A stretch of 35,590 bases of DNA, from the IMG/VR virus record IMGVR_UViG_3300045988_094110; one strand, 5' to 3'. Within the stretch, counting starts at the first letter, position 1, and the number at the start of each line of letters is the position of its first letter. Origin of the DNA: a virus. Made by a program: the position numbers and the translations under genes. Below, in pieces: positions 4,391-17,580 of this stretch. Under the pieces are notes generated by a model. That model was not told where the DNA came from. It ran no database searches and was given only the letters and a program-made list of their open reading frames with translations.

Positions 4391-5465
4391 CATCCTGCGC
4401 CTGTACGTGTATCACGATGGAGTGCGTGTGGGCATGGCGGAGAGCGCGGACAGCCTGCAATGGATGCCCGCGTTTGACGATTTGGGCGAGTTCAAGCTGG
4501 TCTGCGCGGCGACAGAGACGAACCGCGCGCTGCTGGTGCTGGACGCGGTGCTGTACAACCCGGATACCCCCGGTCTGGCCGCGGTGGTGCTGGCGGTAGA
4601 GGCCGATGGAGACAACCACCGGATGACGGTGCGCGGGAAGTTCAGCCTGTGCCTGTTCAAGAGGCGGACCGCCCGCGGGAGCCGCACCATCACGGACGGC
4701 GCGGCGGGCCTGCTGGAGGTCTGCCGTACCAATCTGCGCGGGCTGGGCGTGGCCGTGCCGCCCGCTGCCGGGTTTACGGCCCCCTGCGAGGAGACGGTAG
4801 CCTGGGCGGACTGTGCCAGCGCTGCCGTGCAGCTGATGCAGGCGGGCGGCTTTGGGGGCCGGGTGCGCTTTGACCCTGCCACCGCCGCCCAGACGCTGGA
4901 GCTGTTGCAGGGCAAAGACAGAAGCGTGCCGGGCACGGCGCTGTACAACGGTTATTTTTCCACCCGGATGCAGAATCTATCCGGCGCGGTGTACACGCAG
5001 GACGCGAGCGATTACGCCAACGTTGTGCTGTGCGGCGGCGAGGAGCCCGGCGAGAACGACAGCTTTACCCGGTATTTCTGCGAGCTGGGCGACATGACGG
5101 CCAGCGGCAATGCCCGGCGGGAGCTATGGGTAGACGGGAGCAGCGTGCGGCATAAATACACTGCGCAGAACGCCGACGGCACGACAAGCGACGCCGAATA
5201 CAGCGAGGCGGAGTATCAGGCTGCCGTGCAGAACTACGCGCGCGCGGCGCTGAAGAACCATATGAGCACGCGGCAGCTGAAATGCACCGCGGCCAACACA
5301 AACCTGATCTACGGCACGGACTACGAGCTGGGCGATCTGGTGCCGGTGCGGGTGGAGGAGCTGGGGCTGAACGCTGTGGCGCGGGTGGCGAGCATCCGCC
5401 TGATCTATGAGAGCACCGGCGGCAGTCTGCAGCCGGTGCTGGACCATTTCACATTTAAGGAGTGA
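4383..5465 (+). CDS. Tail-associated / baseplate hub protein (Tal-like, Siphovirus Gp37-like)
   Basis: 360-aa ORF whose GTG start overlaps the Dit stop. It occupies the position after Dit. Confidence 0.5.
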   Translation: MYDILRLYVYHDGVRVGMAESADSLQWMPAFDDLGEFKLVCAATETNRALLVLDAVLYNPDTPGLAAVVLAVEADGDNHRMTVRGKFSLCLFKRRTARGSRTITDGAAGLLEVCRTNLRGLGVAVPPAAGFTAPCEETVAWADCASAAVQLMQAGGFGGRVRFDPATAAQTLELLQGKDRSVPGTALYNGYFSTRMQNLSGAVYTQDASDYANVVLCGGEEPGENDSFTRYFCELGDMTASGNARRELWVDGSSVRHKYTAQNADGTTSDAEYSEAEYQAAVQNYARAALKNHMSTRQLKCTAANTNLIYGTDYELGDLVPVRVEELGLNAVARVASIRLIYESTGGSLQPVLDHFTFKE

Positions 5466-5470
5466 GCCAA

Positions 5471-6745
5471 ATGACAGAGCTTACCTGCTGGCCGCTGGAC
5501 AATAAAGAGTATACCGCCGAGGCGCTGGGCGCGGCTTACGCTGCGCGCAGCCGCGGTATACTGCACGCGGCGGATTTTACCGCCACGGCTAACGGCGACA
5601 ACACACTGACCATCGGCCCCGGTGTGGGGTGCATCCACCCCGGGGCATACTGGGCGGCGTTCCCTTACCTGCTGGCCAATACCCAGCTGACCTTTACGGA
5701 CGCGGACGGCACAAACCCGCGTTGGGATGCCGTTGCCCTGACCTACGACAAGAACACCAACACGGCAGGGCTGGAGGTGCGCACGGGCACGGCCTCGGCC
5801 TCCCCTGCCCTGCCGGAGTTGCGCCGGGATGACGACTACGATGAAATCTTCCTGTACCGCATCACCCGCCCGCGTGGCGCGACGAAGATCAGCGCAGACA
5901 ACATTGTGGACCTGCGGCTGGACAGCACCTGCTGCGGGCTGATGCGCGATACGATGGACAGCGTGGACACCGGCGTGATGAACGCCGCGTTCACGGCGTT
6001 TTTGCAGCAGATCGAGGCGGAGCTTGCCCAACTGCACGCGGGCACTGCCGTGATGACCAAGGGCGAGTACGACCCGGCGGGCCTGGGCCTTGATGCGGCG
6101 GTGCAGCGGTACAGCTGCACGAAGTCCGGCAAGGTCTACGCCCTGAAGGGCACCGGTGCGGTGGGACGGTTTAAAGTCCCCGCCGCGTGGAGTGCGGGCG
6201 ACACATGGACGGTAAACGGCAAGACTGTACCGGCCTACTGCGGCGCGGATGCGGCGGACGGTGACAGCGTTGTTGCCGGGCGGTGGGTGCTGTTTACCTT
6301 TGACGGGAGCCGACTGGATTTTAACGGCGGCGGTGGATTATCCAATGCAAAGCTGGCACAGGCCACCGCCACGGAAGCGGATGTGCTGGCGAACTCTGCG
6401 TTTTACGCGAAAGACAAAACGCTGCGCACCGGCAATGTGCCGCGGCGCGGGGACTGGGGCGCGACGATTGCACCGGGTGAGTCGGTGACGGTGCCGGACG
6501 GAAAGCACGACGGCGGCGGTAGAGTGAGCGCAAAGGCGCTGAAAACGGTGACAATCACCATGGCCACAGGCGGGGGTCCCTGGAGCTACACTTTTACGGG
6601 CGGCACGCTAGTCGGCATCCGCGACATCGCGCAAAGTGGGGATAGCTCGGAGATCGGGCTCCTGCGCATCAGCGGGAACACCATCACCATGGAATGGAGC
6701 GGAAACGGCATCGTGAACCGCCATATCACGCTGATTTACTATTAA
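5471..6745 (+). CDS. Tail/baseplate structural protein, function unknown
   Basis: The ORF track gives 5462-6745. ATG 5471 lies 9 nt after RBS AAGGAG (5456-5461). The gene is in the tail module. Confidence 0.55.
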   Translation: MTELTCWPLDNKEYTAEALGAAYAARSRGILHAADFTATANGDNTLTIGPGVGCIHPGAYWAAFPYLLANTQLTFTDADGTNPRWDAVALTYDKNTNTAGLEVRTGTASASPALPELRRDDDYDEIFLYRITRPRGATKISADNIVDLRLDSTCCGLMRDTMDSVDTGVMNAAFTAFLQQIEAELAQLHAGTAVMTKGEYDPAGLGLDAAVQRYSCTKSGKVYALKGTGAVGRFKVPAAWSAGDTWTVNGKTVPAYCGADAADGDSVVAGRWVLFTFDGSRLDFNGGGGLSNAKLAQATATEADVLANSAFYAKDKTLRTGNVPRRGDWGATIAPGESVTVPDGKHDGGGRVSAKALKTVTITMATGGGPWSYTFTGGTLVGIRDIAQSGDSSEIGLLRISGNTITMEWSGNGIVNRHITLIYY

Positions 6746-12261: not shown

Positions 12262-12932
12262 TGGAGGGCAAAGATATGGAAAACAGCAACAATACCTTTT
12301 TGGCGGCGAAAGCGGCCATTGCGGCGGTCTGTGGGGCGTTCACGGCGGCGTTTGGCTGGCTGGGGTGGCTGGTGGCGGCCTGGGCCGTCTGCATGGTGCT
12401 GGATTGGCTTAGCGGCAGTGCAGCGGCAGCAAGCCGCGGCGAGTGGTCGAGTGCCGTAGCCCGCGCGGGAATTTGGCACAAAGCGGGGATGCTGGTGGTG
12501 GTCGTAGTGGCCGCGCTGACGGACGCAGTATTGAGCATTGCCGTGGCAAACCTGCCGGGGCTGGGGCTGACGTACTCGAGCCTGATTCTGCCGGTGGTAC
12601 TGGTGTGGTACATTTTTACCGAGTTAGGCAGCATTGCCGAAAACGCCGCCGAAATGGGCGCGAATGTGCCGGAGTGGCTGCTGAAGCTGCTTGCCGCTGG
12701 GAAAAGCGCAGCGGACAAGAGCGCGGGCGGTATTACCGTGGAAACCGGGAAAAATGCGGACGGCTCCCCTATTGGGCATCTGGTTGCAACACAACTGGAT
12801 GAGTTGAAAATGGAAGATTTGGAGCAGCTGGCAATCGACATGGGGCTGACTGTGCAGGACGGCGCGAAGCGTGCGGATTTAATTGCGCAGATCAGTGCAG
12901 AGCCGGTGAAGGTACCGAACGTCAGGAAGTAA
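12261..12932 (+). CDS. Holin (phage_holin_4_1-like) with a C-terminal HeH/Rho_N-like extension
   Basis: It has several hydrophobic helices and the motif IFTELGSIAENAAEMG. The C-terminal tail LDELKMEDLEQLAIDMGLTVQDGAKRADLIAQI resembles Rho N-terminal/HeH motifs. An alternative start is ATG 12276, after GGAGGG. Confidence 0.7.
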   Translation: MEGKDMENSNNTFLAAKAAIAAVCGAFTAAFGWLGWLVAAWAVCMVLDWLSGSAAAASRGEWSSAVARAGIWHKAGMLVVVVVAALTDAVLSIAVANLPGLGLTYSSLILPVVLVWYIFTELGSIAENAAEMGANVPEWLLKLLAAGKSAADKSAGGITVETGKNADGSPIGHLVATQLDELKMEDLEQLAIDMGLTVQDGAKRADLIAQISAEPVKVPNVRK

Positions 12933-12937
12933 AACAA

Positions 12938-12976
12938 GCGGCAGGCTGCCCGATGTGGGTGGCCTGCCGCTTTTTT
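12938..12976 (+). terminator. Rho-independent terminator of the late/lysis operon
   Basis: GCGGCAGGC-N15-GCCTGCCGC followed by TTTTTT. Confidence 0.8.
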
Positions 12977-12999
12977 ACGGTGATTTTTGGGGCAAATTA

Positions 13000-13047
13000 C
13001 TACGAACTTTTTACGAACTTTTGGCCGATTACGAACCATTTACGAAG
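13000..13047 (+). repeat. Four direct TTACGAA(C/G) repeats, candidate integrase arm-type sites in attP
   Basis: ctacgaac at 13000, ttacgaac at 13011 and 13029, ttacgaag at 13040 (spacings 11, 18, 11). A further ttacga lies at ~13216, on the int side. Confidence 0.45.
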
Positions 13048-13093
13048 CATTATCTTACAGTATTTGACAGTATATAACACTATCAGACAAATG

Positions 13094-13138
13094 AAAAACC
13101 GCGATACAGCAACCTTTGCAGGTTGTATCGCGGTTTTT
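13094..13138. terminator. Bidirectional terminator hairpin (downstream of int on the minus strand)
   Basis: CCGCGATACA...TGTATCGCGG stem, flanked by AAAAA upstream and TTTTT downstream. Confidence 0.65.
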
Positions 13139-13142
13139 ACAT

Positions 13143-13170
13143 TGGCGGAGTAAGAGAGATTTGAACTCTT
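13143..13170 (-). other. tRNA 3'-end-like segment, candidate attP core
   Basis: The minus strand reads aagag-TTCAAAT-ctctc-ttactcc-g-CCA. That is a T-stem/loop, a 7-nt acceptor strand, a discriminator and CCA. No 5' half is present. It is adjacent to int. Confidence 0.4.
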
Positions 13171-13247
13171 AAAAAACTACGCCAGAGCGACAAACAATAC
13201 AATACTGCGAACAATTTACGATGCCTATTTGATTTCTCTTTTCCACG

Positions 13248-14360
13248 TTATTGATTTGTAAAATAACTGTTTAAAATGTCTGCGGCTTCATCGACGGCGC
13301 GGGCCTTGGCCTCGGCGTACCAGCGCTGGGTTGTCAGGATGTCGGCGTGGCCCATCAGCTCCTTGATGACCACAGGGCTGATGCCGCACTCCACCAGCAC
13401 GCCCGCAAACTCGTGCCGGAGCTGGTGGGCGGTGAAGTCGGCCTCCAGCACGGCCTTGTAGAGTGCCTCGCCGGTGACGCTGGTCTTGCCGGTTTTATAG
13501 CGCTTGCCGCTGTCGTGGGCGCGCCCAATGCTGATGCAGTATTGCCGCCATGCGTTTTCGTACCGGCTTTTGGTGTAGGGCCGCGCGCCGCCAAAAATAA
13601 AATCATCGTCCGCCAGATCGTCCAGCCGGCCGGCAAGCACATCCGCCAGCGGCTGCAGGATCGGCACCGTGCGCAGGGCGCTGGCAGTCTTGGGTGGCTC
13701 CAACACCGGCGTGTTGGAGTGCCAGACTACCGCCTTTGTCACGCTGATTTTTCCCCCGGCTAAATCGCGCTTCTGCAGCGCCATCACCTCGCCCAGGCGC
13801 AGGCCGGCATACATCATCATGGCGGGGCATAGCCCAAAGCCCTCGGGGTGGGCTTTTACATCGGCAATTTCCTCCTCAGTGGGGGCGCGGCGCTTTTTCT
13901 GGGGCAGCCCTTGGGGGAGCTTGAGCAGTGTGCAGGGATTGGTGTCGCCGTTCATCTCGGCGCACCAATACTGCCAGATCAGGGAGAGCACCGACTTCTG
14001 CCCGGCAATGCTTTTATAGGCATAGCCCTGCGCGGCCATGTGCATCAGCTCGCGGTTGATGTCGGTGCTGGTGATCTCGCGCATGCCCTGCCCCTCAAAC
14101 CAGCCCTTGGCGAGCTCCACCTTATGGCGGTAGCCTCGGCGGGAGCCATACTTGATGCACGGCTCCTTGGCGCGCCAGAACGCCTCTGCGACCTCGCAGA
14201 AGGGGTCCCCCCTGTCCCGGCGGGTGCTGGCTTCTATGAGGGCCGCATCGATCTTGGCCTGCACCTCCTTTGCGGTGCGGCCGTAGAAGTGGCGGGTCTT
14301 GCCATCAATAACGCGGCAGCGCTCGATCAGGCCGTCCGCGCGTTTTTTCGTTTTTGCCAT
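13248..14360 (-). CDS. int: Tyrosine recombinase / phage integrase
   Basis: 370 aa. The C-terminus has AHQLRHEFAGVL...LMGHADILTTQRWY (the R..HxxR..Y catalytic pattern). RBS AAGGAGG is upstream. Confidence 0.9.
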   Translation of the reverse strand: MAKTKKRADGLIERCRVIDGKTRHFYGRTAKEVQAKIDAALIEASTRRDRGDPFCEVAEAFWRAKEPCIKYGSRRGYRHKVELAKGWFEGQGMREITSTDINRELMHMAAQGYAYKSIAGQKSVLSLIWQYWCAEMNGDTNPCTLLKLPQGLPQKKRRAPTEEEIADVKAHPEGFGLCPAMMMYAGLRLGEVMALQKRDLAGGKISVTKAVVWHSNTPVLEPPKTASALRTVPILQPLADVLAGRLDDLADDDFIFGGARPYTKSRYENAWRQYCISIGRAHDSGKRYKTGKTSVTGEALYKAVLEADFTAHQLRHEFAGVLVECGISPVVIKELMGHADILTTQRWYAEAKARAVDEAADILNSYFTNQ

Positions 14361-14385
14361 GTAAAAACCTCCTTATAGATACACT

Positions 14386-14414
14386 TTGACAAGCGTGTCC
14401 GGAGGTGATACAAT
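14386..14414 (+). promoter_or_regulatory. Strong sigma70-type promoter pointing away from int (TTGACA-17-TACAAT)
   Basis: TTGACA at 14386-14391, a 17-nt spacer, TACAAT at 14409-14414. Confidence 0.55.
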
Positions 14415-14420
14415 ACAGAT

Positions 14421-14502
14421 GCTGGTCGGTATTGTGTCCACTCCGGACACGCTGATCTTGAATGCCTGCGGTGTTGGTAGCGCCGCGGGCGTTTTTTATT
14501 TT
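14421..14502 (+). ncRNA. Candidate ~80-nt small RNA, antisense to the int leader
   Basis: It would start ~7 nt after the -10 box. It contains the GTGTCCActcCGGACAC hairpin. It ends at a short GC hairpin (14479-14493) followed by TTTTTTATTTT. Confidence 0.3.
14434..14450. repeat. 17-bp palindrome family copy 3: GTGTCCA-ctc-cGGACAC (1 mismatch)
   Basis: Read directly. Intergenic, upstream of int. It is also the inner part of a larger inverted repeat, agcgtgtccggag (14392-14404) / ctccggacacgct (14441-14453). Confidence 0.8.
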
Positions 14503-14630
14503 AAACTTTCGCCGTTTGCCCAGATGCGGAACTGCGTTGCCCGGCGGGTCGCGCTGTGCTTTTTTTAAACTACCGAGAAATCCTCGGCGGTGTTTAAATT
14601 GGAAATTCAAAGCTGTTGGGTTTGCAACTG

Positions 14631-14897
14631 TCACTCCAGTTTTTCAAATACCATAGTTGCCTGAATACGGTCACCGCCCATCAGGCCCTTGCTGCCGCTG
14701 CTGGTAGTAGAAATCGTGTGCAGGCGATACCCCTTTGCAGCCTGCTCATTGATGACATTTTCCAATTCCGTCAGATTGCCGGAGCCGGTTCCGATAAATT
14801 TTTCTTTCAGGACGACTTGCAGCACAACATAATGGTAGTTATTGCCGGATGCCCTGGAAAATGTGGATTCCTCCTGAAGTGTGTCAAAAATGCCCAT
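14631..14897 (-). CDS. DUF4177-like small protein
   Basis: 88 aa with RBS AGGAGGT 7 nt upstream. The pattern YHYVVL...LENVINEQAAKGYRLHTIS...MVFEKL resembles DUF4177. Confidence 0.5.
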   Translation of the reverse strand: MGIFDTLQEESTFSRASGNNYHYVVLQVVLKEKFIGTGSGNLTELENVINEQAAKGYRLHTISTTSSGSKGLMGGDRIQATMVFEKLE

Positions 14898-14935
14898 AAT
14901 AAGTACCTCCTATTTTATACCGCTGCTGCGGTTTG

Positions 14936-14998
14936 TTACAACTTCCTGCACAGGCCAACAGCTTTGCCTTCGATAGAGATTTTGTCAAGCTTGGGGTC
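14936..14998 (-). pseudogene. Remnant 3' end of a second S24-repressor allele (20 codons plus stop)
   Basis: The minus strand reads DPKLDKISIEGKAVGLCRKL*. The intact repressor ends ...TITIEGKAVGLCRKL*. Identity is 34/39 nt over the last 13 codons, and all differences are synonymous. Confidence 0.8.
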
Positions 14999-16160
14999 AC
15001 TCACGATTTTTCTGCTTAAGAGTCCTTGTTTGTTCAATAAGCGCAATGTATTCACTTTCCGTTAGCTTGGTTATATTCTGTCCTTCGGCAATCAGTTCAT
15101 TTGCCTTACCGAGCTTTCTGGCAACCGCCCATTCAGGAAGGTGAGAAATGTCCCCGACAACAAGATATACGGTCTTGGTGTTTACTTTTTCCCGAAGATT
15201 CGCGCCAACATCCTTTAATAAGCCTTCAAGGTAATCCCGGTCAAGGAAAAAATCACCGGTAAAAGCGAAATTTTTATCAAAAATAGGTGACCATGCAAAT
15301 TCCTTTGCGATAGCGGCCTTTTGTGATTTTTTCCGCTCGCGTTCCTGATGCGTAAATTCCTTCTCGTCTGTAGTCATTTTTCGGATACAATATTGCAACA
15401 AGCTGTTTGCGGTTTTTGCATCATCTAAAGCGCGATGAGCATTACCTGTATCCAGGCATAGACGATTTGCAAGAGATTGTAGCCTATAAGATTTCCCGGG
15501 GATGCAGTTTCTAGCAACTTTTACCGTATCAATATAAGAAATAGATGCTATTTCGGTGTGGTCTGAAATAGCACGAGAGACAAAAGCTAAGTCGAAAGTG
15601 ACATTGTGCCCAACAACAATCTGATTTTTTATTCTTGATACAACATCTGGAATTACATCCTCTAACTGCGGGGCATCGCGCAAGTCAGACTCGGAAATTC
15701 CATTTATGGCGGTAGCCTCCGAAGAAATAGGAATAGTCGGCTTTATGAGGCTTGTATATTCGTTTGTAATTTCTCCATTTTTGACTGTAATGATTCCGAT
15801 TTCAACCATCTGATCTTTTTCTGGGCTGAGGCCGGTGGTTTCAGTATCAAGCACGACATAATCTGTCAATTTTTTAAGGCTTTCTATATCATCGGGGGCA
15901 TTTACCAATGAAATGCGATTATTTTTGTTAGAGGTAAATGACCCCGGTGCTTTAAGCTCTTTGACGTTCTGCCCCAGTAGCTGTTGCAGACAAATCAGAA
16001 CAAACCCATAAGCTAAAAGCGCAACCAAAAGCGAACTAGCCAAAGAAATGAAAATGCCATGGCCTTCTACGAGATAATACGAAAATAAAATAAAAGTGAC
16101 AAGAACAGCGCTCAAAAGCGAAAGAACTTTGATAGTTTTCTTTGATGAAGTGTTTTTCAT
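14997..16160 (-). CDS. Membrane-anchored DEDDh (DnaQ/epsilon-like) 3'-5' exonuclease with a C-terminal BRCT domain
   Basis: Two N-terminal hydrophobic helices. Exo motifs VVLDTETTGL, GHNVTFDLAFV and HRALDDA. BRCT-like region FAFTGDF...TVYLVVGD...KLGKANEL. ATG 16160 lies 6 nt after RBS AAGGTG and 14 nt after the repressor stop (the ORF track extends to 16190). Sampled 60-nt lines are ~33-37% G+C. Confidence 0.75.
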   Translation of the reverse strand: MKNTSSKKTIKVLSLLSAVLVTFILFSYYLVEGHGIFISLASSLLVALLAYGFVLICLQQLLGQNVKELKAPGSFTSNKNNRISLVNAPDDIESLKKLTDYVVLDTETTGLSPEKDQMVEIGIITVKNGEITNEYTSLIKPTIPISSEATAINGISESDLRDAPQLEDVIPDVVSRIKNQIVVGHNVTFDLAFVSRAISDHTEIASISYIDTVKVARNCIPGKSYRLQSLANRLCLDTGNAHRALDDAKTANSLLQYCIRKMTTDEKEFTHQERERKKSQKAAIAKEFAWSPIFDKNFAFTGDFFLDRDYLEGLLKDVGANLREKVNTKTVYLVVGDISHLPEWAVARKLGKANELIAEGQNITKLTESEYIALIEQTRTLKQKNRE

Positions 16161-16174
16161 TTTCGGCACCTTAT

Positions 16175-16813
16175 TTACAGTTTCCTGCACAAGCCAACGG
16201 CCTTGCCTTCGATGGTGATGGTGTTCATATCTTCGCCGATGCGGATGATTGTGGGAAAGGCTGGGTTTTCGGCGCGGAGCTCGATGTGGTCGGTGAACAG
16301 AAACACGCGCTTAAGGGTGGCCTCGCCATCGATCAGGACGGCAGCGACCTCGCCGTTCTCGACCATCGGCTGGCTGTGGATGGCTACGACATCGCCGTCT
16401 TTGATTTTTGGCTCCATGCTGTCGCCCTGGCACAGCAGCGTGAAGTCGGCGTGCCAATCGCTGGGGACTTCATCGTAGGCCTCGACATTCTCCTCCGCGA
16501 GGATGGGTGTGCCGCAGGCGATTTGCCCCACACGCGGGATGCGGTCCCGCTTCGGCAGCGGCTGGAACCCGGCAGGGATGGGAGTAGCGGCAACAGGATT
16601 TTTCCGTTCGACGGTTGATCGCCCCATGAGATAATCCATGTCGACATTGAAAATGTCTGCGATAGCTTCAAGCGTTTCAAAATCTGGTTCGCGGCTGCCA
16701 GTTTCATACATGCCTATCGTACTGCGGGATACTTTTAGCAAGGCAGCGAGTTGCTCTTGCGTTATGCCTCTTTCGATGCGAAGGGATTTTATAATTGCCG
16801 AAAATTTAGCCAT
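16175..16813 (-). CDS. Phage repressor, XRE HTH + S24 (LexA/cI-type) autopeptidase
   Basis: 212 aa. N-terminal HTH (ITQEQLAALLKVSRSTIGMYETG). C-terminal GDSMEP...LKRV Ser/Lys dyad. Confidence 0.9.
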   Translation of the reverse strand: MAKFSAIIKSLRIERGITQEQLAALLKVSRSTIGMYETGSREPDFETLEAIADIFNVDMDYLMGRSTVERKNPVAATPIPAGFQPLPKRDRIPRVGQIACGTPILAEENVEAYDEVPSDWHADFTLLCQGDSMEPKIKDGDVVAIHSQPMVENGEVAAVLIDGEATLKRVFLFTDHIELRAENPAFPTIIRIGEDMNTITIEGKAVGLCRKL

Positions 16814-16844
16814 GCGAAGTCAATCCTCTCTGTGTACTAATCTT

Positions 16845-16872
16845 ATAATATCGCGAATCGTGAGAAAGTCAA
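16845..16872 (-). promoter_or_regulatory. Candidate repressor (PRM-like) promoter
   Basis: On the minus strand: TTGACT, a 16-nt spacer, TATTAT, then RBS GAGAGGA before ATG 16813. Confidence 0.45.
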
Positions 16873-16894
16873 CCGCAAAATGTCACGAAATGTG

Positions 16895-16922
16895 TTGACA
16901 AATACCAAGAGCGTGATATACT
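16895..16922 (+). promoter_or_regulatory. Candidate early lytic (PR-like) promoter
   Basis: TTGACA (16895-16900), a 16-nt spacer containing a TGn extended -10, then TATACT (16917-16922). Confidence 0.5.
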
Positions 16923-16931
16923 GTATATATA

Positions 16932-16946
16932 GTCACGGTTCGTGAC
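16932..16946. promoter_or_regulatory. Operator-like palindrome GTCACG-gtt-CGTGAC just after the PR -10 box
   Basis: Perfect 6-3-6 palindrome. Related half-sites (a)TGTCACGA occur at 16880-16888. Confidence 0.5.
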
Positions 16947-16968
16947 AAATGAAAGCGAGGTGATTCTG

Positions 16969-17166
16969 ATGGATTCGGAGAAGATTGCGCAAACATTGGT
17001 TGAACTGCGGGGCGCTCGACCGCGCGCCGAGGTTGCAACAGCGCTGGGTGTAAGCGTTTCTGCACTGGCGATGTACGAGACTGGCGCTAGAATCCCCCGC
17101 GATGAAACAAAGCGTAAAATCGCGCAGTATTACGAGAAAACCGTGGAGGAGATTTTTTACGCCTAA
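16969..17166 (+). CDS. Cro-like XRE-family HTH protein
   Basis: Divergent from the repressor gene. RBS GAGGTGA lies 5 nt before ATG 16969 (the ORF track starts at 16942). HTH read as RAEVATALGVSVSALAMYETG. Confidence 0.75.
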   Translation: MDSEKIAQTLVELRGARPRAEVATALGVSVSALAMYETGARIPRDETKRKIAQYYEKTVEEIFYA

Positions 17167-17168
17167 AA

Positions 17169-17187
17169 ATGTCACGATAAGTGACAT
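17169..17187. promoter_or_regulatory. Operator-like palindrome ATGTCAC-gataa-GTGACAT
   Basis: Perfect 7-5-7 palindrome sharing the aaaatgtcacga block with 16877-16888. Confidence 0.45.
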
Positions 17188-17191
17188 GCAC

Positions 17192-17208
17192 GTGTCCACC
17201 TTGGACAC
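17192..17208. repeat. 17-bp palindrome family copy 4: GTGTCCA-cct-TGGACAC (perfect)
   Basis: Read directly. Intergenic between the cro-like gene and the next HTH gene, directly 5' of RBS AAGGAG. Confidence 0.9.
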
Positions 17209-17226
17209 GCAAAGGAGTTGATACAG

Positions 17227-17580
17227 ATGAACGGAGTGTACGACAGGATCCGTCAGCTTCGCATTGCCAACGGGCTGACGCTGGAGGAGCTGGCCCGGGC
17301 CGTCGGCTACAAAGGCAGGTCGATGATGTCACAGGTCGAGCTGGGCAAGGTCGATCTGCCGCTGTCCAAGGTCGCCGCTATTGCGCAGGCCCTGCACACA
17401 ACCCCTCAGGAGCTGCTGTTCCCCGCCTCACCTCCCGAGAAGGTGGCTGCAGCTATAACCGTAGCCGTCAAGCTGGACGGCATGGATGAAGCCCTTGATA
17501 AAGCGCACGAACTGGTAAGGACAATCGAAAAGACCAAGTCGCTGGTGGGCGACCTGGCCGTGGACACACAAAGGAGGTAA
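17227..17580 (+). CDS. Second XRE-family HTH regulator
   Basis: ATG 17227 lies 9 nt after AAGGAG (the ORF track starts at TTG 17218). HTH read as LTLEELARAVGYKGRSMMSQVELG. Confidence 0.65.
   Translation: MNGVYDRIRQLRIANGLTLEELARAVGYKGRSMMSQVELGKVDLPLSKVAAIAQALHTTPQELLFPASPPEKVAAAITVAVKLDGMDEALDKAHELVRTIEKTKSLVGDLAVDTQRR

Follow-up and report, generated by a model that had tools for sequence, protein, structure and literature searches.

A predicted membrane-anchored exonuclease-BRCT protein encoded behind a prophage repressor, a candidate nuclease against DNA entering the lysogen

Why would a temperate gut phage carry, directly behind its repressor gene, a gene for an exonuclease with a predicted membrane anchor? 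The question is raised by the IMG/VR virus record IMGVR_UViG_3300045988_094110, a stretch of 35,590 nucleotides (nt) called the window below. Read by its open reading frames (ORFs), the window looks like the complete genome of a temperate, siphovirus-type phage, with structural and lysis genes on the plus strand up to ~12.9 kilobases (kb), a lysogeny module on the minus strand at 13.2-16.8 kb, and early and replication genes on the plus strand from 16.9 kb (Table 1). ORFs and Pfam matches bear out the statement of a first-pass annotation that two genes lie between repressor and integrase, all on one strand: one encodes a 387-amino-acid (aa) protein with a DnaQ-like exonuclease and a BRCT domain (exo-BRCT in the following), the other an 88-aa DUF4177 protein. 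Since the exo-BRCT gene is dispensable and exchangeable, stands in a position for co-expression with the repressor, shares its slot with genes for lipoproteins and membrane proteins and appears to encode a membrane-held exonuclease, its product is best read as an exclusion nuclease. We hold with moderate confidence that it would be expressed in lysogens and attack free DNA ends entering at the membrane; it is the gene context that suggests a function in defence.

The exonuclease domain is complete. Its motifs DTETTG (aa 105-110), HNVTFD (aa 185-190) and HRALDDA (aa 242-248), already recognised at first reading, hold the catalytic DEDDh residues D105, E107, D190, H242 and D247, which are invariant across an alignment of 28 homologues, and the motifs Exo I (D-x-E), Exo II (D) and Exo III (H-x4-D) together with an RNase-H-like fold place the protein in the DEDDh superfamily. 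The AlphaFold2 model of the protein, built on 28 homologues, is confident (predicted local distance difference test, pLDDT, 91.7) and consists of two helices (4-32 and 36-68), a short disordered linker (69-83), the exonuclease domain (84-263), a connecting helix (266-287) and the BRCT domain (297-386). The latter, a C-terminal domain that had been named before any search, passes the Pfam gathering score and shows the beta-alpha-beta fold E297-301/H308-318/E321-323/E330-335/H343-358 at a pLDDT above 90, with the (S/T)-G turn and distal Lys typical of BRCT. Its residues G302 and R308 do not vary across the 28 homologues, at least 90% of which also keep T301 and K349. In other BRCT domains, the positions equivalent to these four serve to bind phosphate or 5'-phosphorylated DNA ends, and the nearest solved relative is the BRCT domain of NAD+-dependent DNA ligase (LigA; 1l7b, E 4.7e-4). 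By analogy, the BRCT domain of the window protein may bind phosphate or DNA ends too.

In Foldseek searches, the exonuclease domain matched the N-terminal domain of S. aureus DinG, the T. maritima PolC exonuclease (2p1j, 36% identity), E. coli epsilon, the Cas2-DnaQ trimming domain and ExoX, with a probability of 1.0 to the exonuclease domains of PolC, epsilon, DinG and ExoX. A fold search of BFVD returned generic viral DnaQ-like proteins with polymerase annotations only. Sequence similarity to epsilon and to the PolC exonuclease domain agrees with the database names 'DNA polymerase III epsilon' and 'DNA polymerase exonuclease subunit', according to which the protein would be a proofreading subunit for replication, and the exo-BRCT core belongs to phrog_192, a large catalogued phage family named polymerase exonuclease subunit. 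We give proofreading next to no credence. All NCBIfam equivalogs remain far under their cut-offs (e.g. dnaQ_proteo, 104.6 vs 222.7) and the generic dnaq subfamily-domain model is the only NCBIfam model passed (116.6 vs 71.5); the gene stands in the lysogeny operon on the strand opposite to the replication module (~17.8-26.5 kb), its product has a predicted membrane anchor, and sister phages dispense with it. Membership in phrog_192 also speaks against the initial impression of complete novelty: phages of Staphylococcus, Streptococcus and Campylobacter have annotated members, labelled as replication or ligase proteins. The core family is already catalogued and annotated by domain similarity alone, and the architecture, a putatively membrane-located nuclease as a moron, that is, a lysogen-expressed accessory gene, of the immunity region, varies a theme already known.

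The fold neighbours also bear on the substrate, which is probably DNA. Defence against RNA phages is known from DEDDh exonucleases that are encoded by prophages and combined with auxiliary domains (PMC13344964), and an RNA-directed antiviral exonuclease of ISG20/TONDO type, trimming the 3' ends of phage RNA, was therefore weighed as an alternative. It is very unlikely: the best structural neighbours are DNA exonucleases, ISG20 is absent from the top 50 Foldseek matches, the BRCT domain is ligase-like and DNA-associated, and the TONDO authors call their set distinct from other defence DEDDh domains (PMC13344964). TONDO exonucleases (bioRxiv 2026, PMC13344964) resemble the exo-BRCT protein in joining a DEDDh domain to a variable auxiliary domain, in their location on prophages and mobile elements and in being antiviral, whereas they target RNA phages and the nearest folds of the exo-BRCT protein are DNA exonucleases; the two were set apart by their structural neighbours. 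Kinship with diDNase, an NrnC-like deoxydinucleotidase (PMC11706625), was likewise considered and is not supported, as the top fold neighbours are long-substrate DNA exonucleases and not Orn or NrnC.

Ahead of the exonuclease, Kyte-Doolittle hydropathy marks hydrophobic segments at aa ~9-31 and ~35-63, which coincide with the first two helices of the AlphaFold2 model and agree with the two N-terminal transmembrane (TM) helices proposed initially. The N-terminus is Lys-rich, an EGHG loop separates the helices and a basic stretch follows helix 2, a charge pattern that would leave both ends of the hairpin in the cytoplasm and the nuclease at the inner membrane surface. Of 25 close homologues, 22 have one or more hydrophobic segments ahead of the exonuclease domain. 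The anchors differ in sequence (plain hairpins, TM2 domain, zinc ribbon plus TM), and in close homologues the first exonuclease motif is preceded by about 97 to 207 aa. The anchor appears to be conserved as a feature and not as a sequence.

The exo-BRCT gene is tightly coupled to the repressor. As the first-pass annotation had noted, it begins 14 nt behind the repressor stop and has its own ribosome-binding site: the ATG (16160) lies exactly 14 nt past the TAA, AAGGTG stands in front, and the same start is kept in relatives, which together make ATG 16160 a likelier start than GTG 16190. No minus-strand terminator is predicted between repressor and exonuclease gene, and the promoter-like site upstream of the repressor is a candidate lysogenic promoter for repressor, exonuclease and DUF4177 gene.

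This arrangement is common among homologues. The closest full-length relatives are 51-57% identical and carry the source names uncultured Gemmiger and Subdoligranulum. The relatives examined, these and more distant ones, stand directly behind a CI-like repressor or an ImmR/ImmA pair and ahead of a tyrosine or serine recombinase, in backbones that otherwise differ, and the spacing between exo-BRCT gene and immunity gene is 5-25 nt across phyla. In IMG/VR, a repressor-like gene was found upstream on the same strand in 45 of the 47 loci with a full exo-BRCT gene and a recombinase downstream in 33, many of the remainder stopping at a contig edge; these 47 loci are not independent and fall into roughly 20 distinct groups by eye. 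The same gene order was read by eye from the ORF lists of species-representative bacterial genomes in seven of ten usable loci, the scan with a generic exonuclease motif having returned mostly ordinary DnaQ, PolC and DinG loci (~10 of 80 usable). More distant, soluble exo-BRCT proteins (23-29% identity over aa ~100-377) occupy the same position in S. pneumoniae IPP62 (IPP62_00002), S. aureus phiSa2wa (UYL83194 / phage 47 ORF013), S. suis Javan549 (Javan549_0060) and C. jejuni CJIE4 (ORF8), with Pasteurella Pmp8 as an exception. They have the same core and the same slot, after repressor or ImmA and before int, and differ in having no N-terminal hairpin and in being annotated as polymerase subunit, ligase or exonuclease.

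Thus, here and in the homologues, the gene lies in the lysogeny module co-oriented with the repressor, as is characteristic of a moron, and the earlier suggestion that the repressor-to-integrase slot is a classic location of exclusion genes is strengthened by the many unrelated prophages in which homologues hold it. Lambda rexAB, lactococcal sie2009 and S. thermophilus ltp are likewise lysogen-expressed, located near or between repressor and integrase, often membrane-associated and dispensable for lysogeny. None of them is known to be a nuclease; they block injection or trigger abortive infection. Their location is similar to that of the exo-BRCT gene, but no homology to it is known.

Expression in lysogens has been reported for one homologue, CJIE4 ORF8, by proteomics (PMC3995785). 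In CJIE4, a repressor plus exo-BRCT module alternates with a module of repressor plus non-specific nuclease, and proteins of both were detected in lysogens (PMC3995785). Such an alternation between two nuclease modules fits an exclusion nuclease. With the exonuclease module being an allelic alternative to one with a DNA/RNA non-specific nuclease, and with resistance to DNA transformation listed among the known effects of C. jejuni prophages (PMC3995785), the protein could act primarily against transformation or recombination, degrading single-stranded DNA (ssDNA) from the competence channel and shielding the prophage from deletion by recombination. Soluble homologues indeed occur in prophages of the naturally competent Streptococcus, Campylobacter, Pasteurella and Moraxella, and ssDNA 3' ends suit the substrate preference of DnaQ-like enzymes. 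Transforming ssDNA enters 3' end first in Gram-positives, and the DNA/RNA non-specific nuclease family of C. jejuni prophages blocks natural transformation. The CJE1441-type members of that family in C. jejuni CJIE elements are, like exo-BRCT, prophage-borne and repressor-adjacent, but belong to another nuclease family and another cell location. However, homologues of the window protein are frequent, too, in phages of Clostridium, Listeria, Paenibacillus and Staphylococcus and in Oscillospiraceae, for which natural competence is not established, and the other cargo of the slot (lipoproteins, small TM proteins) resembles phage-exclusion genes, so that we regard such a primary role as unlikely.

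The exo-BRCT gene is part of an exchangeable cassette. A repeat search revealed a direct repeat of 50 nt, D1, with copies 82% identical and spaced by 1239 nt. Copy A ends the repressor gene, and copy B lies 11 nt past the exonuclease stop and 38 nt ahead of the DUF4177 start. Copy B still codes for the C-terminal peptide of the repressor and its stop, with synonymous differences, and is therefore the scar of a different repressor allele.

What else can occupy this slot was seen in a scan of IMG/VR with the DUF4177 protein, which gave 80 loci, 40 of them with a full-length repressor homologue upstream and hence a measurable gap. The slot between repressor and DUF4177 gene is empty in nine of the 40 (gap of 16-21 nt) and holds this exonuclease in eight. 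In the others it contains a 283-aa lipoprotein-like protein (eight loci), a 239-aa protein with DUF4236 and TM segment (five), a 245-aa soluble protein (four), a 139-aa protein with C-terminal TM segments (two, L081 and L082), or, in one locus each, a 128-aa small TM protein (L028), a lipoprotein together with the DUF4236-TM protein (L060), a 241-aa protein with TM hairpin and HIRAN domain (L065:4142-4867; Pfam HIRAN, E 1.3e-8) and a gap of ~170 nt with no ORF of at least 60 aa (L092). The repressor-3' scar precedes the DUF4177 gene in several cassette types, at a distance of 39 nt where the cassette is that of the exonuclease, of DUF4236 or of L028, and of 17 nt in L060 and L065. This mix of lipoproteins, small TM proteins and HIRAN is, by analogy, what would be expected for exclusion genes.

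Two close relatives of the window document the exchange. In L025, the repressor is 99% identical to that of the window, and the slot is filled by the DUF4236-TM protein: nucleotide homology ends at 16174, one base beyond the repressor stop, gives way to the DUF4236 cassette and sets in again at 14969, within the scar. L009, on the other hand, is 99.3% identical to the window over DUF4177, exonuclease and the 3' two-thirds of the repressor, vs only 89% in the backbone, while the N-terminal part of its repressor and its operator region are unrelated to those of the window. The module is swapped between phages through recombination for which the conserved 3' end of the repressor gene serves as anchor. 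Presence of the gene thus varies among sister phages, as is typical of immunity-region morons, and the other cargo or empty slot beside related repressors shows the exonuclease to be dispensable for repressor function.

These observations also speak to a role in lysogeny itself, in which the enzyme would trim 3' ends or ssDNA and thereby adjust the RecA/SOS or ImmA signal by which the neighbouring repressor is inactivated, stabilising or timing induction. The extremely tight linkage to the immunity gene across phyla would fit such a modulator, as would the S24 autocleavage domain of the repressor in the window. The 99%-identical repressor of L025 nonetheless works with other cargo, more distant relatives have an empty slot, the exonuclease gene accompanies S24-type and ImmR/ImmA-type immunity modules alike, and a membrane anchor is hard to square with action at the nucleoid or replisome. 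Altogether, modulation of induction seems improbable to us.

The exonuclease gene has 40.6% G+C and a GC3 of 37%, with values between 32 and 53% (mean 41%) in its 60-nt lines; the window as a whole has 61% G+C, the structural genes about 59-69%, the DUF4177 gene 48%, the repressor 56% and the integrase 62% (GC3 80%). The contrast on which the first-pass annotation had relied is therefore real (40.6% vs 61%), although its figures of ~33-37% for the gene and ~65-70% for structural genes were overstated, and its view of the gene as foreign to the backbone is upheld in the sense of a foreign accessory gene in the lysogeny operon. Relative to its flanks, the exo-BRCT gene is 5-21 G+C points lower in six high-GC prophages and level with them in low-GC hosts. 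Every homologue examined in high-GC hosts (L001, L003, L010, L015, L101, L122 and the window) shows this deficit. Because these alleles are only 33-57% identical, the low G+C is persistent and not merely the sign of one recent transfer. Among close alleles of the exonuclease dN/dS is 0.10-0.38, and the gene is under purifying selection. In P0002, P0004, P0005, P0007 and P0019, the N-terminal part of the exonuclease is fused to other sequence (a transposase fragment, or a deletion into a DUF3644 gene), so the exonuclease is sometimes inactivated.

If the protein acts as an exclusion nuclease, its gene would be co-transcribed with the prophage repressor and hence be a lysogen-expressed moron. 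The helical hairpin would tether the exonuclease to the inner face of the cytoplasmic membrane, and the LigA-like BRCT domain would hold DNA ends for the DnaQ-type 3'-5' exonuclease. The latter would degrade the free ends of entering linear DNA, mainly superinfecting phage genomes and possibly transforming DNA, and the entry ends would be destroyed before the DNA circularises, replicates or recombines. Self DNA would be spared by the requirement for a free 3' end and by the placement of the enzyme at the membrane, away from the closed chromosome.

A precedent for such a mode of action is SNIPE, a membrane-bound GIY-YIG defence nuclease of E. coli that cuts the DNA of phages while it is being injected (Saxton et al., Nature 2026, PMC13190303) and tells self from non-self by its location at the DNA entry site (PMC13190303). 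SNIPE has an N-terminal membrane anchor of variable length and low conservation ahead of its cytoplasmic DNA-binding module and nuclease, a layout that is predicted for the exo-BRCT protein as well, and most but not all homologues have a TM anchor, in the exo-BRCT family a predicted one. They differ in that SNIPE combines DUF4041 with a GIY-YIG endonuclease and the window protein a DEDDh exonuclease with BRCT, with no sequence or fold relationship; Pfam gave no match to DUF4041 or GIY-YIG in the 387-aa protein. The role of SNIPE was shown by experiment, whereas that of the exo-BRCT protein is suggested from its gene, which stands in a prophage immunity operon. As the two are unrelated in sequence, the claim is that the protein works like SNIPE, not that it is a member.

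Among catalogued defence systems, profile searches gave strong matches of the exonuclease domain to PADLOC PDC-S48 (E 9e-44) and to a cas-associated DEDDh model (E 7e-39). Membership in PDC-S48 was rejected: only profile positions ~4-198, the exonuclease domain, match in the window protein and in eight relatives, the PDC-S48 profiles having 411 or 512 positions, and the C-terminal half of PDC-S48 differs from that of the protein. The window was inspected for cas genes between positions 12 and 19 kb, where none was seen. The initial statement that no named defence system is matched thus holds for full-length matches, PDC-S48 covering the exonuclease half only.

Several points weigh against an exclusion nuclease. 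Exonucleases of the DnaQ type usually have little activity on blunt duplex ends, and protected genome ends are widespread among phages. Membrane insertion and topology are predicted from hydropathy and AlphaFold only, and many Staphylococcus and Streptococcus homologues have no membrane anchor, so tethering is not essential to the function of the family. The near-obligatory linkage to repressors could instead reflect lysogeny control. No defence-system model matches the protein over its full length, and the literature searched held no functional data for this protein or any exo-BRCT homologue; searches on PDC-S48, on BRCT with exonuclease and prophage or defence, and on DEDDh with anti-phage found no study of this architecture.

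Table 1. Positions of the features discussed, given for the window unless a locus is named
Feature	Position	Strand	Basis and remarks
CI/LexA-type repressor, first gene of the operon	16175-16813	-	HTH_3 E 1.6e-19, Peptidase_S24 E 5.6e-25 (Pfam); phrog_4
Exonuclease-BRCT gene, 387 aa	14997-16160	-	RNase_T and BRCT (Pfam); alternative GTG start at 16190
Predicted membrane hairpin, two long hydrophobic helices, aa 4-68	15957-16151	-	Hydropathy and AlphaFold2
DnaQ-like DEDDh 3'-5' exonuclease domain, aa 84-263	15372-15911	-	RNase_T E 5e-33
BRCT domain, aa 297-386	15003-15272	-	PF00533 E 9e-5, 23.1 bits vs cut-off 21.3
DUF4177 gene, 88 aa	14631-14897	-	PF13783; AGGAGG ribosome-binding site
Tyrosine integrase, last gene of the lysogeny module	13248-14360	-	Pfam Phage_integrase E 1.5e-13
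Direct repeat D1 copy A, last 50 nt of the repressor gene	16175-16224	-	Repeat search
Direct repeat D1 copy B, repressor-3'-end scar	14936-14985	-	Encodes ...IEGKAVGLCRKL and stop
Promoter-like site TTGACT-16-TATTAT upstream of the repressor	16845-16872	-	Consensus scan only
Divergent promoter-like site facing a cro-like HTH ORF (16942-17166)	16895-16922	+	Consensus scan
Intergenic element between DUF4177 gene and int	14386-14504	+	Promoter-like site, palindrome, terminator hairpin
Cys-rich family members	L104:5403-5945, L157:5403-5915, L102:6948-7454		

The second gene of the pair was identified correctly as DUF4177-like (PF13783, 27.5 bits vs a cut-off of 25), and the 88-aa ORF matches phrog_22683 over its full length (E 1e-45). 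The database holds 5971 clusters at E <=1e-3, the best 120 all at least 74% identical, and 50 positions are invariant in an alignment of 24 sequences; the AlphaFold2 model is of low confidence (pLDDT 57.6) and does not confirm the fold. A 66-aa DUF4177 protein has been reported to have bacteriocin-like activity (PMC11322243). That exonuclease and DUF4177 protein form one two-gene defence system, as proposed at first, is extremely unlikely. The two genes are neighbours with the same orientation in the window, L009 and eight IMG/VR loci, but the exonuclease is absent from 72 of the 80 DUF4177 loci (present in eight), every other exonuclease context examined is without DUF4177, and the pairing is confined to this phage lineage. 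The repressor-3' scar between the two genes identifies them as separately acquired cassettes. Furthermore, DUF4177 crosses phyla and is found without exonuclease in a Coriobacteriia chromosome (Leptogranulimonas), next to the toxin-antitoxin genes RelB/YafQ, while in one related contig its neighbours are genes for type I restriction-modification (loci L186-L189). In L025, L028 and L031, a second scar of the repressor 3' end (97 nt, 5287-5383) follows 20 nt beyond the DUF4177 stop, which makes DUF4177 itself a scar-bounded cassette and the lysogeny operons of these three phages cassette arrays separated by repressor-3' scars; the window has neither the second scar nor the gene that follows it. 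The DUF4177 gene is a separate, independent cassette and no specific partner of the exonuclease. Between DUF4177 gene and int, some relatives carry a gene with a DUF3644 / EC042_2821 domain (L182:7521-8519; L181:1797-2990).

The intergenic element ahead of int combines a near-consensus promoter-like site (TTGACA-17-TGnTACAAT, 11/12 matches) with extended -10, overlapping a palindrome with 28-bp arms at 14392-14453, and a plus-strand terminator hairpin at 14460-14504. The segment 14418-14510 folds at -42.2 kcal/mol (z -5.8). Conservation of the element in other phages is 74-81%, and in L025 the DUF4236 cassette has a copy at its end (4693-4774). An Rfam search over 12900-17300 gave no match. 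The element may encode an antisense RNA of ~85 nt or serve as a control region of int. The low-GC stretch that separates the lysis genes from the 3' end of int contains a 17-nt motif (TACGAAC..TTTACGAA) in four copies, at 13001-13046 and 13206-13222, which may be arm-type binding sites of the integrase in attP.

Other genes accompany exo-BRCT homologues elsewhere. In three unrelated Clostridia prophages, soluble exo-BRCT genes adjoin genes for proteins of 168-180 aa with no Pfam match and a Cys-rich motif (GCC..Y.EC....C), which may be partner proteins of exo-BRCT. A Megasphaera prophage has a divergent second RNase_T-like ORF (L122:7138-7791; 217 aa, E 1.2e-4) between exo-BRCT gene and integrase. 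In L123, a protein with two TM segments and a weak HIRAN match (4895-5815; E 0.0036, below the cut-off) is encoded directly ahead of a soluble exo-BRCT gene. Homology between the exo-BRCT hairpin and that of the HIRAN cassette was considered (pairwise BLASTP suggestive for the exonuclease homologue P0025 at E 1e-7, weak for the window protein at E 1e-3) and is not relied on, because hydrophobic composition may inflate these E values.

HIRAN domains bind DNA 3'-OH ends, and the HIRAN proteins of L065 and L123 fit the reading as a nuclease against DNA ends. Tentatively, repressor-linked exo-BRCT proteins might together represent a widespread, uncharacterised form of prophage immunity at the point of DNA entry, a possibility that we rate as rather doubtful. 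Its proteins would be membrane-anchored or soluble, the soluble ones sometimes beside a membrane-anchored HIRAN protein, and foreign DNA would be recognised by topology, i.e. a free 3'-OH or 5'-phosphate end at the membrane, and not by sequence or modification. The TM hairpin with HIRAN would be a second, nuclease-free solution, and the scars would mark a dedicated route of cassette swapping.

The phage-host biology of gut Oscillospiraceae is almost untested. If the exo-BRCT protein is an exclusion nuclease, the prophages of these dominant human gut bacteria would hold a second, evolutionarily independent lineage of membrane nucleases beside SNIPE. It would also give a function to phrog_192, including the S. 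aureus, S. pneumoniae and C. jejuni prophage genes that are now labelled polymerase subunit or ligase, and searching the slot bounded by the repressor stop and the repressor-3' scars could bring more exclusion genes of gut phages to light.

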